Source: Candidatus Woesebacteria bacterium RIFCSPLOWO2_01_FULL_39_23 (GTDB taxonomy: Bacteria > Patescibacteriota > Microgenomatia > UBA8517). From it: a DNA stretch of 64,000 nucleotides. This document shows, piece by piece, positions 10,410 to 63,341 of this stretch. The first letter of the stretch is position 1; each line of letters begins with the position of its first letter. The notes beneath the pieces are model-generated. The model had not been told where the DNA came from, made no database searches, and saw only the letters and a program-made list of their open reading frames with translations. Position numbers and translations under genes: made by a program. The stretch lies in assembly GCA_001793095.1 (NCBI GenBank), contig MGHG01000008.1:269-64268 (forward strand), written 5' to 3'.

Positions 10410-10799
10410 TCACCTTCTCTCCCGCACCAATTTAGCTAAAGAAAGACTTCCAGATATTCGTTTCTTTAGTTCATTGAGTGCTTGTCCATAATTTTTTAAT
10501 CTATATTCACGGGTCATTGCGTCTTCTTTTGATTTATGACGTCCTCCGCGGACCAAGAGTCCGCGGTTTCCCTCTAAAGGAGGACGACATATCAAGTTCA
10601 ATTCATCTCCGGGCTGATAGCCCGGAGTTTTCTCGAAATTGCTATAACTCTCATTGTATACTAAAATCCAAGGCCCTTTTTTTCTGGTAGAGAAACTCCT
10701 GTTTGTATTATGTTCAACAATCCTTTTTTTAATATTATTTGTATAACCTATGTAAAGCTCTCCGGTAACGAAACTTACCAATATGTAAACATAATACAT
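10410..10799 (-). CDS. GIY-YIG nuclease family protein carrying a ~35-aa in-frame GC-rich palindromic insertion
   Basis: MYYVYILVS..ELYIGYTNNIKKR..H motif. Likely true start is the ATG at 10799; the track's TTG at 10826 reads through the inverted-repeat arm. Insert NFEKTPGYQPGDELNLICRPPLEGNRGLLVRGGRHK is absent from the two paralogs. Confidence 0.7.
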   Translation of the reverse strand: MYYVYILVSFVTGELYIGYTNNIKKRIVEHNTNRSFSTRKKGPWILVYNESYSNFEKTPGYQPGDELNLICRPPLEGNRGLLVRGGRHKSKEDAMTREYRLKNYGQALNELKKRISGSLSLAKLVRERR

Positions 10800-10817
10800 A
10801 GCTAATTTGGTGCGGGA
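10421..10817 (-). mobile_element. Hairpin element with ~18-bp terminal inverted repeats (TCCCGCACCAATTTAGCT / AGCTAATTTGGTGCGGGA) whose loop encodes a GIY-YIG nuclease
   Basis: Arms at 10421-10437 and 10800-10817 are near-perfect reverse complements. Same arm family as the 41553/41844 element and the three 23S rRNA insertions. Confidence 0.6.
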
Positions 10818-40791: not shown

Positions 40792-41538
40792 ATGGAAGAA
40801 GAAAGTTTCCTACCGGCGACGATACAGGACAGCTTCAATAAATATTTTCCGTATCTGATGGAGATCAGGAAGAGATTGTTTTTTATTGCAGCTATTTTTC
40901 TCGTTTCCGGGATATTTGGGTTTATTTATTATGAAAAAATAATAAGTACAATCCTGCATCTTCTGAACCTGACCGGTGTAAATATTGTCTTTACCTCGCC
41001 CTTCCAGTTTTTTACCTTATCTATAAATAGTGGATTTTTAGTTGGAGTGATTGTGTCCGCCCCGCTCATTTTCGCTCAAATCCTCTCTTTTATAAGGCCT
41101 GCGCTGACCAAAAAGGAATATAAAATTACAATTACTCTTCTCCCCGTCACTATAATTCTTTTCATCCTGGGATTTTTTTACGGTGTATCAATTATGAAAT
41201 ACATCGTGACCATCTTCTACCAAAAATCACAAGAGCTTAATATCGGGAATCTTCTGGACATCAACCTGCTGCTTGGAAAAATAATAACAACGGGCATCCT
41301 TCTCGGAGTTGCCTTTGAATTTCCTATCATTATGACTATTTTAATGCGACTTAATGTCATTAAATACAAAGACTTTATCAAACAGAGATTTTTGGCATAT
41401 TGCGTAGCAATTATATTTGCCGCACTTCTTCCTCCAACCGATATCCTGTCACTGATGCTTTTGACTCTTCCACTTGTAATGCTCTTTGAACTTACGCTAA
41501 TATTGAATAAGCTATTTTTAAAATCGCATTTATTATAA
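40792..41538 (+). CDS. tatC: Twin-arginine translocase subunit TatC
   Basis: Six TM helices with TatC-like spacing (EIRKRLFFIAAIFLVSG ... FAQILSFIRPALTKKE). Confidence 0.75.
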   Translation: MEEESFLPATIQDSFNKYFPYLMEIRKRLFFIAAIFLVSGIFGFIYYEKIISTILHLLNLTGVNIVFTSPFQFFTLSINSGFLVGVIVSAPLIFAQILSFIRPALTKKEYKITITLLPVTIILFILGFFYGVSIMKYIVTIFYQKSQELNIGNLLDINLLLGKIITTGILLGVAFEFPIIMTILMRLNVIKYKDFIKQRFLAYCVAIIFAALLPPTDILSLMLLTLPLVMLFELTLILNKLFLKSHLL

Positions 41539-41552
41539 TAAATTAGCGGGAG

Positions 41553-41844
41553 CCCCGCACCTGATTCTGGCTATGCATTATGTGTATGTTATTCAGAGTA
41601 TAAAATCTTATGAAATATACATCGGCTCTACAAAGAATCTAAAATTAAGACTTGGTAAACATAATGCAAATAAGAATACATCGACAAAAAATAGAGGACC
41701 CTGGATGTTAATTTACACAGAAGTATACAGATCAAAAGACGATGCGACGGAACGGGAATTCCGTCTTAAATACTATGGACGCGCCCTGGCTCAATTAAAA
41801 AGAAGACTCGTTAGGAGTCTTTTGAAGCCAGAATAGGTGCGGGG
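41553..41844 (+). mobile_element. Hairpin element (arms CCCCGCACCTGATTCTGG / CCAGAATAGGTGCGGGG) whose loop is exactly filled by a GIY-YIG ORF
   Basis: ~17-bp inverted repeats at 41553-41570 and 41828-41844. The ATG follows arm 1 by 2 nt and the TAG stop lies within arm 2. Confidence 0.65.
41573..41836 (+). CDS. GIY-YIG nuclease family protein (87 aa)
   Basis: MHYVYVIQS..EIYIGSTKNLKLRLGKHN; inserted between tatC and tatA5. Confidence 0.75.
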   Translation: MHYVYVIQSIKSYEIYIGSTKNLKLRLGKHNANKNTSTKNRGPWMLIYTEVYRSKDDATEREFRLKYYGRALAQLKRRLVRSLLKPE

Positions 41845-41857
41845 GAGGTGATAACTA

Positions 41858-42001
41858 ATGGTAAAAGGTATCGGATCAACTGAATTAATTATTATTGCGA
41901 TTATACTTTTAATTCTTTTCGGCGGAAGGAAATTGCCTGAGCTGGGACGCGGGCTTGGTGAATCAATAAGAGAGCTGAAAAAATCGATGAAAAACAAATA
42001 A
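41858..42001 (+). CDS. tatA: TatA paralog 5 (47 aa; missed by the ORF track)
   Basis: MVKGIGSTELIIIAIILLILFGGRKLPELGRGLGESIRELKKSMKNK; SD GGGGGAGGTG 7 nt upstream. Confidence 0.7.
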   Translation: MVKGIGSTELIIIAIILLILFGGRKLPELGRGLGESIRELKKSMKNK

Positions 42002-60187: not shown

Positions 60188-60753
60188 ACGTACCACTTTA
60201 ATGGGCGAACAGACCAACCCTTGGCACCTTCTCCAGCGCCAGGATGTGGTGAGCCGACATCGAGGTAGCGATCCGCGCCGTCGCTATGGACGCTCGGGCG
60301 CGACTACTCTGTTATCCCCGGGGTAGCTTTTATCCGTTAAGCTCCAACCCTTCCATGCAGGATTGGAGGATCACTAAGACCTACTTTCGTACCTGCTTGA
60401 GCCGTCACTCTCGCAGTCAAGCTGGCTTTTGCCTTTATACATTACGCACGATGTCCATCCGTGCTAAGCCAACCTTTGTACCCTTGCGTTACTCTTTGGC
60501 AAGGTACCGCCCCAGTAAAACTGCCCACCTAACACTTTCCCTTCCCGAGTATTCATCGGGATTAGGTAAGACTTGCCACGCTCTAAAGGGAGGTGTTTCA
60601 GTGTCGCTCGCGCATAGCTCGCAAATGTCAAATTACAAAAAAGCAAATGATAAATTAGTTTCATTTAGCATTCATCTTTTTAGCATTTAGCATTTCCGTG
60701 CTACACACGGGCTCCCTCCTACTCTAAACAATTAGATCGCACAAACCAATGTT

Positions 60754-60922: not shown

Positions 60923-61357
60923 CAATATGTTATCCCGATCGAATCCGGGACTACGATTTTACGTAGACTGCATATTGCTATGCAGATCGGACTATATCAT
61001 CCACGTTCATGTAAACTGAACGTAGCCTAGCGTGTAGTCTCTGAGGATTCCTTCAAAAATTACTAATTGACTTAATTGCTCTAATTTCTAACAAATTATT
61101 TAATGACCAATTTCAAATGACTAAAACAAAACTTAGTTGGGTCATTCTTAAATTGGGGTTTGATTAGGTTAATTAGAAATTAGTAATTAGAAATTACTTG
61201 GAGGCCTTTCCTGCTGATTGTCCGCACTGATCGCATTGTTACCATTTTAAATGGTAGCGTCAGATACTTCAACTGTTCGTTATTTCCATTCTACTTGAAA
61301 ATCACTACAGTACGGATATTCCAGCATATAGCTAGGTTTTAGAACTACGACTATTTC
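60923..61357 (-). mobile_element. ORF-less group I intron in 23S rRNA at the L1917-1923-type site (between GUAACUAU and AACUGUUCUACGGUAGCG)
   Basis: 5' exon ends in U and pairs with the internal guide GUAGUU (U.G at the splice site); intron ends in G. Core elements present: Q-like AATCAGCAGG, R TCAGAGACTACACG, S GATATAGTCCG. Confidence 0.7.
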
Positions 61358-61606
61358 ATAGTTACTGCTGCCGTTTACCGGAGCTTGACATTGCTGCGCT
61401 TCGCGCAAAAAAGCCAAATTATAAAAAACAAAATGATAAATTAAATTCATTTAGCATTTGCCTTTTGGTCATTTAACATTCTTTGTGCGAAGCACAACGC
61501 CGCTTAACTTACCGGCACTGGGCAGGCGTCAGCCCGTATACTTTGCCTTTCAGCTTTGCACGGACCTGTGTTTTTGATAAACAGTCGGTTAGCAAACATT
61601 TGCTGC

Positions 61607-61743
61607 GCCCCGCACCAATTTAGCAGCTGATTCTCCAAAATATGAATCCTACTTATATAAAACTTAAGTAATATTATTCAAGTTAAATATAAAATAAGAC
61701 TCAAATTCGAATCAGTAATATTTTCTGCTAAATTGGTGCGGGG
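61607..61743 (-). repeat. 23S rRNA intervening sequence 1 (helix-63 region): 19-bp perfect stem GCCCCGCACCAATTTAGCAG / CTGCTAAATTGGTGCGGGG with ~98-nt AT-rich loop
   Basis: Inserted at the tip of a native helix; arms share the TIR family of the GIY-YIG elements. Confidence 0.7.
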
Positions 61744-62120: not shown

Positions 62121-62258
62121 CCCCCGCACCAAAATGGCATCTTATTTTCCAAAATATGAATCTTACTCTTAATAATCACTAAACTATATTCTTCAAATAA
62201 ATTATTAAGGTTAATCTGATCCAATTAAGGTAATATTTTATGCCACTTAGGTGCGGGG
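62121..62258 (-). repeat. 23S rRNA intervening sequence 2 (helix-45 site): stem CCCCCGCACCAAAATGGCAT / ATGCCACTTAGGTGCGGGG
   Basis: Replaces the E. coli GAGGCC-GAAA-GGC tetraloop hairpin; ~100-nt AT-rich loop shares TCCAAAATATGAATC with IVS 1. Confidence 0.7.
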
Positions 62259-62636
62259 CTCATCTTAGGTATCGACTAACCCGTCGTGGACGAACCTAGC
62301 GACGGAAACCTTGGGCTTACGGCGTCCCAGATTCTCACTGGGATTGTACGCTACTCATACCGGCATTCTCACTTCCGTACCTTCCACTCCGCCTCACGGC
62401 GAAGCTTCACTGGATACGGAACGCTCCCCTACCACACCCGCTCGCAGAGCGGGAATGACCAATTTCCAATGGCAAATAACCAATGTATTATTAGAAGCCA
62501 TATTTAAACTTACTGCTTCTTTTACATTTAGCATTTATCATTTAGCATTTATCATTCCTGTTCTACGAACAGGTATCTCTAGCTTCGGCACGCAACTTAT
62601 CCTCGATAAATTTTAGGCGCCTGCTTCCATCGACCA

Positions 62637-63204: not shown

Positions 63205-63341
63205 CCCCGCACCAAGTTGGCAGAAAATATTTCATTGATTTGAATGTTAACATTAACTAAACTTTAAGTTTATTGAAAGTTTAAACAATAAATAAACTCA
63301 TGTCTCATATTTTGAAAATCAGCTGCCAATTTGGTGCGGGG
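63205..63341 (-). repeat. 23S rRNA intervening sequence 3 (helix-25 site): stem CCCCGCACCAAGTTGGCAG / CTGCCAATTTGGTGCGGGG
   Basis: Classic IVS position (helix 25); one G.U in an otherwise perfect 19-bp stem. Confidence 0.7.

Follow-up and report, generated by a model that had tools for sequence, protein, structure and literature searches.

The 64,000-nucleotide stretch analysed here (hereafter the window; contig MGHG01000008.1, Candidatus Woesebacteria) comes from the Candidate Phyla Radiation (CPR), bacteria whose rRNA genes are rich in insertions; one of its GIY-YIG proteins shows 100% identity to a protein from the genome of Candidatus Woesebacteria bacterium RIFCSPLOWO2_01_FULL_39_23. The window contains five hairpins of one family, two of which enclose a gene for a small GIY-YIG nuclease and three of which lie, free of any open reading frame (ORF), in a 23S rRNA gene. 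The two gene-bearing copies are referred to as W1 (~10410-10817) and W2 (41553-41844), and the features of all five, in window coordinates, are as follows.

10410..10799, minus strand: W1 GIY-YIG nuclease ORF, 129 aa, with its ATG at 10799 and its stop at 10410; the final codons run through the 3' arm
10800..10817, minus strand: W1 5' arm in gene sense, TCCCGCACCAAATTAGCT, ending right at the ATG
10420..10437, minus strand: W1 3' arm in gene sense, AGCTAAATTGGTGCGGGA
~10536..10643 (approximate), minus strand: in-frame, GC-rich palindromic insertion of 108 nt (36 aa) within the W1 ORF
41553..41572, plus strand: W2 5' arm, CCCCGCACCTGATTCTGGCT, adjoining the ATG
41573..41836, plus strand: W2 GIY-YIG nuclease ORF, 87 aa, between tatC (40792-41538) and a tatA-like gene
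41826..41844, plus strand: W2 3' arm, AGCCAGAATAGGTGCGGGG, overlapping the stop codon
59833..63944, minus strand: host 23S rRNA gene, 4112 nt (2904 nt in E. coli)
63205..63341, minus strand: 137-nt ORF-less hairpin in place of the helix-25 tip of the 23S (E. coli ~540-550)
62122..62258, minus strand: ORF-less 137-nt hairpin at E. coli 23S ~1367, a site that is empty in the related 23S L151
61608..61743, minus strand: ORF-less 136-nt hairpin at E. coli 23S ~1699-1749

A preliminary description of the window had placed the W1 arms at 10421-10437 and 10800-10817. Both are present and are complementary at 17 of 18 positions, with a single A·A mismatch, and only the start of the first had to be moved, to 10420. 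The minus-strand ORF that they bracket encodes a product matching Pfam PF01541 (E = 9e-12). The second copy proposed at 41553-41844 was borne out as well, its arms pairing with a 1-nt bulge around an ORF whose product matches the same family (E = 1e-17). The arm core CCCGCACCAA occurs seven times in the window, against 0.09 occurrences expected from shuffles.

The sites of the three hairpins in the 23S rRNA gene were placed by alignment with the E. coli 23S. Each stem-loop extends or replaces a helix tip, at ~540-550 (helix 25), ~1367 and ~1699-1749, the last two of which we take to be helices 52 and 63 of the E. coli map; the classical sites of 23S intervening sequences are helices 9, 25 and 45. 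The preliminary description had these hairpins at 61607, 62121 and 63205, each ending in one common arm core. All three are indeed bounded by the same foot, CCCCGCACC…GGTGCGGGG, although the arms of the 62122-62258 hairpin (CCCCGCACCTAAGTGGCAT / ATGCCATTTTGGTGCGGGG) do not fit the preliminary pattern 'AAnTTnGCAG' exactly. As RNA they fold nearly end to end, with z-scores of -8.2 to -13.2. The arms of the helix-63 hairpin are almost identical to those of W1, the inner variable part and the foot both being common to the two, which bears out the proposal that ORF-bearing and ORF-less hairpins form one family.

A metagenomic 23S (L151), with 77-88% identity to the window 23S in aligned blocks, carries the hairpin at helices 25 and 63. 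At ~1367 it has only the native small hairpin gag-gccataatggc-gtag where the window has gag-[CCCCGCACC…GGTGCGGGG]-gtag, and this helix-52 position is thus an empty site. In the window, the helix-25 copy runs opposite to the helix-63 copy, and opposite also to the copy that L151 has at helix 25. Such a gene-less palindrome, found in either orientation and present in one relative but not in another, behaves as inserted DNA does.

The same 23S gene contains two other kinds of insertion. A second, AT-rich hairpin family with AAATGCTAAATG-type repeats lies at 62434-62576, 61389-61497 and 60622-60705. In E. coli numbering these sites are ~1163-1185, ~1860-1886 and ~2133-2145, the first of them being helix 45, one of the classical intervening-sequence sites. 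A 435-nt insertion at 60923-61357, following E. coli position 1917 and devoid of long ORFs, gave a sub-threshold match to the group I intron model (37.9 bits, E = 3e-8); it is probably an ORF-less group I intron, itself holding an AT-rich hairpin.

The hairpin is a trait of a protein family and not of this contig alone. A protein-family scan using one genome per species yielded at least 545 confirmed relatives of the nuclease, of which the best 80 loci were taken regardless of their flanks. Their hosts are mostly Patescibacteria, with a few metagenome-assembled genomes labelled Bdellovibrionales, Gammaproteobacteria, Elusimicrobia, Omnitrophota and Margulisiibacteriota. When the region just upstream of the ATG was compared with the region around the stop codon, the best ungapped bracketing stem exceeded all 200 shuffles of the locus in 62 of 78 testable loci, so that the paired arms also surround GIY-YIG genes in relatives; a gapped search found stems of at least ~10 bp in 70 of 80 elements, the two of the window included, with a median of 20 bp. 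Taken with the core count in the window (7 against 0.09), stems that beat every shuffle in 62/78 loci lead us to reject a chance or artefactual origin. Autonomous copies measure ~300-420 bp and consist of two inverted arms enclosing a single ORF; gene-less derivatives retain the arms and span ~35-230 nt.

An anchored alignment revealed a conserved foot on both arms, CCCC-N-CAC … GTG-N-GGGG. The next 10 positions inward differ in each of 44 elements, and yet these inner 10 nt are complementary to their own partner arm at 8.2 positions, compared with 3.3 for a partner arm from another locus. To judge from these sequences, the pairing of the arms is maintained. Stem mismatches are chiefly transitions, 17 of the G:T type and 10 of the A:C type on the sense strand, with no significant strand bias. 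Start codons lie inside the stem or within 7 nt of it in 39 of the 62 significant elements. Additional copies with the same foot, near the ORF-bearing element but outside it, number 19 in 11 of 59 loci, where ~2.4 would be expected, and several of them are gene-less hairpins.

Foot and protein vary together. A neighbour-joining tree of the 82 proteins groups them in clades that correspond to the foot variants CCCCGCACC / CCCAGCACC, CCCCTCAC, CCCCCCACCAC and CCCCCACAC, with every clade represented in different host RNAs. Single genomes can contain two foot types side by side, each accompanied by its own type of protein (L007 with L034, and L019 with L037). This pairing fits a foot that is read by the element's own nuclease better than a foot that is read by one host enzyme; joint inheritance of arms and ORF would also produce it.

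The nucleases of the family are single-domain proteins of 85-91 aa, W1 reaching 129 aa with its insertion. PF01541 is their sole significant Pfam match, apart from hits to the related PF10544 in some members, and a search of NCBIfam with the nuclease returned sub-threshold matches only. The catalytic Tyr, Tyr, Arg, His and Glu are invariant in the family alignment, and the AlphaFold2 model (mean confidence, pLDDT, of 92) predicts one compact domain. By sequence and by fold, the best solved relatives are UPF0213 proteins (1ZG2, 1YWL) and Slx1, a structure-selective nuclease acting on branched DNA that also has a RING domain and a partner protein. The fold match to I-TevI is weak (E = 0.19), and the protein reaches 21 bits with the group I intron endonuclease model TIGR01453, whose cutoff is 56. 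The preliminary description had called the ORF-bearing members homing-endonuclease-like, a label that we abandon, because their nearest relatives are of the UPF0213, Slx1 and Ssn kind and the resemblance to I-TevI is weak. A homing endonuclease of the I-TevI type is not supported, the protein having 87 aa and no second, DNA-binding domain, and its TIGR01453 score lying far below the cutoff. No recognised transposase of the DDE, HUH, serine or tyrosine type accompanies the nuclease, which is the element's only ORF, and the four-helix S23p/IVP protein is not the cargo, the ORFs found being GIY-YIG genes.

The 108-nt insertion in the W1 ORF is absent from all 22 aligned homologues and unique within the window. 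It comprises two hairpins, CTCCGGGC…GCCCGGAG and CGTCCTCC…CGCGGAC/GTCCGCG…GGAGGACG, and resembles the in-frame palindromic elements of Rickettsia. Neither the insertion nor the element matched any Rfam family, and no intron model fits the element.

Copies sit at G-rich sites, among them helix tips in RNase P RNA and in 23S and 16S rRNA, the 5' ends of genes for tRNA and tmRNA, and short operon spacers, in many cases right ahead of the ribosome-binding site of the following gene. Roughly 29 of the 80 loci lie within or against stable-RNA genes, classes that make up ~1% of such genomes. The placements identified with Rfam are these.

Inside 23S rRNA, sense: L030, L080
Inside 16S rRNA, sense: L032, L046, L072
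Inside RNase P RNA, sense: L005, L007, L021, L025, L061, L068, L075
Directly at the 5' end of tmRNA, sense: L006

All 13 of these ORF-bearing copies share the orientation of the host RNA. In L005, L021 and L025 the element directly precedes AGGAAAGTCC, and it therefore stands at the place of helix P3 in RNase P RNA. About 16 further elements adjoin tRNA genes, mostly at the 5' end and in sense. The other elements occupy short spacers between protein genes, where their direction agrees with that of the upstream neighbour in 37 of 47 cases, and with that of the downstream neighbour in 32 of 44. ORF-bearing copies are almost always in sense, and ORF-less copies occur in both orientations.

In spacers, the G-run of the 3' arm is often likely to be the ribosome-binding site of the next gene, as in GGGGGAGGTGATAACTAATG in the window and GGAGGAGGTGATTATTTATG in L205. 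The G-run of the W2 3' arm continues into GGAGGTGAT, the likely ribosome-binding site of the gene that follows W2. The sequence after the 3' arm (GGAGGTGAT, 6-7 nt, ATG) is conserved between window positions 41840-41862 and L205 positions 815-840, where the downstream genes differ. From such sequences, the element may bring or preserve the ribosome-binding site of whichever gene follows it. Among the tRNA-associated loci, L063 (2436-3760) is a tRNA cluster interleaved with three different small GIY-YIG genes, one of them lying after a tRNA remnant that comprises the 5' two-thirds and another with an Ssn-like C-terminus (REIQIKKWRRGKKEMLI).

Traces of insertion surround many copies. The sequence just 5' of the 5' arm often recurs just after the GTG of the 3' arm: direct repeats of at least 6 nt flank 13 of 58 copies (0.29 expected), and repeats of at least 4 nt flank 23 of 58 (3.1 expected). 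Beside tRNA genes, it is the first 7-11 nt of the tRNA that are repeated; in L033, for instance, the order is GGGCCCGTAG (tRNA nucleotides 1-10), then CCCCTCAC … GTGAG, then GGGCCCGTAG-TTCA. As these repeats are the start of the tRNA, the G-run that pairs with the element's C-run belongs to the target. Shorter repeats elsewhere include GGGGTAG, GGGTTGA, TTGA and TGAA. Elements at helix tips have, in place of direct repeats, complementary flanks from the host helix. Two proteins 74-75% identical to that of W2 occupy unrelated neighbourhoods, neither of them a tat operon: one lies beside MamF-like, PCMT and Pth genes, the other between a metallo-β-lactamase-fold gene and uvrD (for contig P0003, the context was taken from the gene table alone). 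The mobility that the preliminary description ascribed to the family is therefore supported indirectly, the direct repeats, the empty helix-52 site, the occurrence in both orientations and the related proteins in unrelated contexts all suggesting past movement.

A metagenome scan for the window-type arm CCCCGCACCAANTTNGC gave 80 hits, mostly single arms that represent chance occurrences or tRNA 3' ends, and ~10 of the 80 are real gene-less hairpins of 44-229 nt. One of these lies in a 23S, and several have TTGA or TCAA direct repeats; for the other metagenomic gene-less hairpins, no RNA-gene match was found at the hairpin, with the exception of L121. There, at 19-136, family arms enclose a complete antisense tRNA-Arg gene (46-120), so that the cargo is a tRNA and not an ORF. 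The gene-less hairpins of L090 (2099-2266), L096, L103, L134 (2598-2745), L154 and L160 have the arms CCCCGCACCAATTTTGC and a GC-rich, structured cargo, with compensatory changes between L090 and L096 (GTCCGCCGAAGGCGGAC compared with GTCCACCGAAGGTGGAC) and a motif, GGCC-GAATA-GGYC / TCCC-TTGT-TGGG, shared by the other four. A search of the cargo-bearing hairpins against Rfam gave no match.

The closest known partnership of this kind is that of the Ssn nucleases, single-domain GIY-YIG enzymes whose genes are flanked by cognate hairpin repeats (NTS/SRM) and which cut single-stranded DNA next to the hairpin, even when the hairpin halves are on separate strands (Chenal et al. 2025, PMC11893778). 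A tblastn search against plasmids gave few hits, among them yazA and, as an Ssn-type control, Azospirillum lipoferum plasmid AZO_p3 (L081), where a 97-aa gene between sufB and sufC is flanked by four copies of CGTCATCCCCGCGAAGGCGGGGATCCAG, with an inverted NTS-like pair on each side (1080-1170 and 1500-1590). The hairpin stem of this plasmid, CCCCGC/GCGGGG, recurs as the outer foot of the elements in the window, and the CPR nuclease is homologous to the plasmid gene. Ssn and CPR systems thus have in common a single-domain GIY-YIG nuclease of ~90 aa, a gene tied to a cognate GC-rich hairpin that recurs in the genome (here, in three more copies in the 23S), similar stems (TCCCGCG/CGCGGGA in NTS and CCCCGC/GCGGGG in Azospirillum, compared with CCCCGCAC/GTGCGGGG in CPR), and protein clades that pair with hairpin variants. 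They differ in that the CPR gene lies in the loop of one long hairpin, whereas an Ssn gene lies between complete small hairpins; in that CPR elements lack the published SRM motif, its GTCAT tag included, and CPR proteins lack the Ssn C-terminal region K-W-x-R…NP-x-W-x-DL; and in that CPR elements occur chiefly in CPR hosts, within rRNA and RNase P RNA and against tRNA and tmRNA genes. The SRM motif HGTCWY…YYVSBRH…WNVSBRG…RNCYNB was found 0 times in 82 loci (±300 nt), 0 times in the window and four times in the Azospirillum control. With a CPR profile, Ssn-type proteins reach 47-70 bits and those of UPF0213 reach 56-63 bits; with an Ssn profile, the values are 30-58 bits for CPR members and 40-53 bits for UPF0213 proteins. 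Given these roughly equal scores and the lack of SRM hits, we regard the CPR elements as relatives or analogues of Ssn systems, a reading of the sequences that falls short of demonstrated membership.

Based on these findings, we propose that the hairpins are a family of small selfish DNA elements, bounded by their own hairpin, that encode a structure-specific nuclease of the UPF0213/Slx1/Ssn lineage and give rise to gene-less derivatives, a reading to which we assign a probability of about 0.6. It draws directly on the architecture, the conserved foot, the covarying arms, the genomic contexts, the orientation bias, the direct repeats and the empty site. By analogy with the action of Ssn on NTS repeats (PMC11893778), the nuclease would recognise the foot of its own hairpin in single-stranded or extruded DNA and nick beside it, and the nick would help the element and its gene-less relatives to be copied or to move. 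Within a host RNA, the long stem would rejoin the flanks, so that the RNA could still fold and the insertion would be harmless. As the stem is long enough for cutting by RNase III, copies in rRNA would be intervening sequences, and the gene-less derivatives are, on their sequences, best read as rRNA expansions or intervening sequences. Expression of the nuclease is probably weak, because the start codon is usually buried in the stem or next to it.

Several observations weigh against this proposal. Both the action of the nuclease and the spread of the element are deduced from sequence, and the 80 loci are the best-scoring protein matches and not a random sample. Near-identical copies at different sites, which would prove recent movement, were not found among the loci. 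Direct repeats occur in only a subset of copies, vary in length from 4 to 11 nt, and are absent from many copies and from elements in RNA helices. The CPR protein is no closer in profile score to Ssn-type proteins than to UPF0213, and the SRM motif is missing. The mismatch counts of 17 and 10 are uninformative, since selection on RNA pairing, on DNA pairing or on both cannot be told apart from them. Finally, hairpins with other cargo, whether structured RNA or tRNA, mean that the nuclease need not mobilise the hairpin.

In an alternative that we consider unlikely, the hairpin is an RNA processing cassette. The stem would serve mainly as an RNase III-type stalk that frees the content of the loop, be it a nuclease mRNA, a small structured RNA, a tRNA or nothing, from the host transcript; the GIY-YIG gene would be one cargo among others, without action on the hairpin, and the cassette would spread by recombination or gene conversion. 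In favour of such a cassette, 13/13 copies in or at stable RNAs are in sense, and 37/47 operon copies follow the direction of their upstream neighbour. The hairpins are very stable as folded RNA, their median stem of 20 bp is sufficient for RNase III, one copy lies at the classical helix-25 intervening-sequence site, and loops with other cargo do occur. However, on the sense strand G·U pairs show no significant excess over A·C mismatches, ORF-less copies can lie in either orientation, and many copies are flanked by target-like direct repeats. A foot that is conserved, tracks the protein clade and comes in two types per genome is unexpected for a single host RNase, and cutting of the stem would often harm the start of the mRNA, with the start codon in the stem or within 7 nt of it in 39/62 elements.

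Less probable still, in our view, is that nuclease and scattered hairpins are a domesticated, Ssn-like host system that serves the cell and is not selfish, for example by restricting or modulating incoming single-stranded DNA in natural transformation. A host function of this kind was proposed for SsnA and the NTS repeats of Neisseria, and the function of SsnA is on record (PMC11893778). The CPR protein is homologous to an Ssn-type gene with flanking NTS-like hairpins, the foot CCCCGC/GCGGGG is similar to the stem of NTS, conservation of the catalytic residues extends over a wide radiation, and there are five hairpins in 64 kb. Yet the SRM motif is absent from the 82 loci and the window, and the profile scores place the CPR proteins no nearer to the Ssn clade than to UPF0213 proteins. 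Moreover, close homologues lie at different loci, and sites inside essential RNA genes, with flanking duplications, look like insertions and not like marks designed by a host.

We set aside as highly improbable the notion that the foot CCCCGC-ACCA / UGGU-GCGGGG imitates a tRNA acceptor stem and CCA tail, by which RNase P and the enzymes that trim 3' ends would cut the element out of host RNAs. CCCCGC-ACCA is indeed the sequence of the window arms, and the boundary of many elements coincides exactly with a tRNA or tmRNA 5' end, where RNase P cleaves. But ACCA is not conserved in the family (CAC is mostly followed by C and then T), the UGG motif for reading CCA is missing from about two-thirds of CPR RNase P RNAs (PMC8172020), and the direct repeats account for the abutment to tRNA 5' ends.

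Selfish hairpin elements of the kind we propose would resemble several known systems without coinciding with any. The 23S intervening sequences of Salmonella, Leptospira and Coxiella, processed by RNase III, likewise are stem-loops that extend a variable helix tip, and one CPR copy is at helix 25; they too may carry an ORF and are supposed to spread horizontally (PMC11270868). Their cargo is the four-helix S23p/IVP protein, in contrast to the GIY-YIG nuclease of the CPR element, an element that is also found in RNase P RNA and 16S rRNA, next to genes for tmRNA and tRNA, and between protein genes. REP/RAYT systems, IS200/IS605 elements and bacterial miniature inverted-repeat transposable elements share with it a small nuclease gene with hairpin ends, abundant gene-less palindromes and a plausible action on hairpins in single-stranded DNA. 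Their enzymes are HUH tyrosine or DDE transposases and not GIY-YIG nucleases, and the CPR element differs further in its strong preference for stable-RNA genes and in its flanking duplications; its inverted arms are present as in insertion sequences, but its direct repeats are of variable and not of fixed length. UPF0213 proteins (YazA and YhbQ; 1ZG2, 1YWL) and Slx1 provide the best sequence and structure matches to the nuclease domain; yazA, however, keeps a constant housekeeping position, flanked by trmNF and rsmI, with no repeat features annotated in its record. A self-splicing intron or intein as the carrier is not indicated, as no intron model matched the element, and the CPR GIY-YIG insertions were non-intron in an earlier survey as well (PMC11270868).

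That survey (Tsurumaki et al. 2024, PMC11270868) found the GIY-YIG proteins of CPR rRNA insertions to lie exclusively in insertions that are neither group I nor group II introns, scattered over poorly conserved sites, and reported that the short rRNA insertions of CPR bacteria are mostly unclassified, many of them at known intervening-sequence sites. Its GIY-YIG insertions are the same phenomenon at the level of rRNA; the bracketing hairpin, the ORF-less relatives, the locations outside rRNA and the link to Ssn are not reported there and come from the present analysis. The preliminary description had held that nothing similar was known, which has to be narrowed: GIY-YIG ORFs in non-intron CPR rRNA insertions (PMC11270868) and the association of Ssn with hairpins (PMC11893778) are already on record. 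In the literature searched, there is no description of the bracketing conserved hairpin, of the gene-less relatives, of copies at RNase P RNA, tmRNA and tRNA genes, or of the flanking duplications.

A more far-reaching version of the proposal, which we offer tentatively and regard as somewhat doubtful, is that these elements are a new class of hairpin-ended DNA transposon. It would consist of an 85-aa GIY-YIG nuclease and the hairpin that encloses it, would home to the G-rich starts and helix tips of structured-RNA genes, would be phenotypically silent there, its own stem restoring the fold of the host RNA, and would have gene-less offspring from which many of the unexplained intervening sequences and short insertions in the rRNA of CPR bacteria derive.

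For part of the short rRNA insertions of CPR bacteria, this element family provides a candidate origin and a candidate means of spreading, and the same element invades RNase P RNA genes and sits at the ends of tmRNA and tRNA genes. It extends the partnership of nuclease and hairpin known from Ssn to a different architecture and to a huge uncultured lineage, and it supplies dozens of natural protein-hairpin pairs with testable specificities. If the nuclease does mobilise its hairpin, these elements would be among the smallest autonomous mobile units known, and they would represent a third route, besides introns of groups I and II, by which selfish DNA comes to reside inside essential RNA genes.

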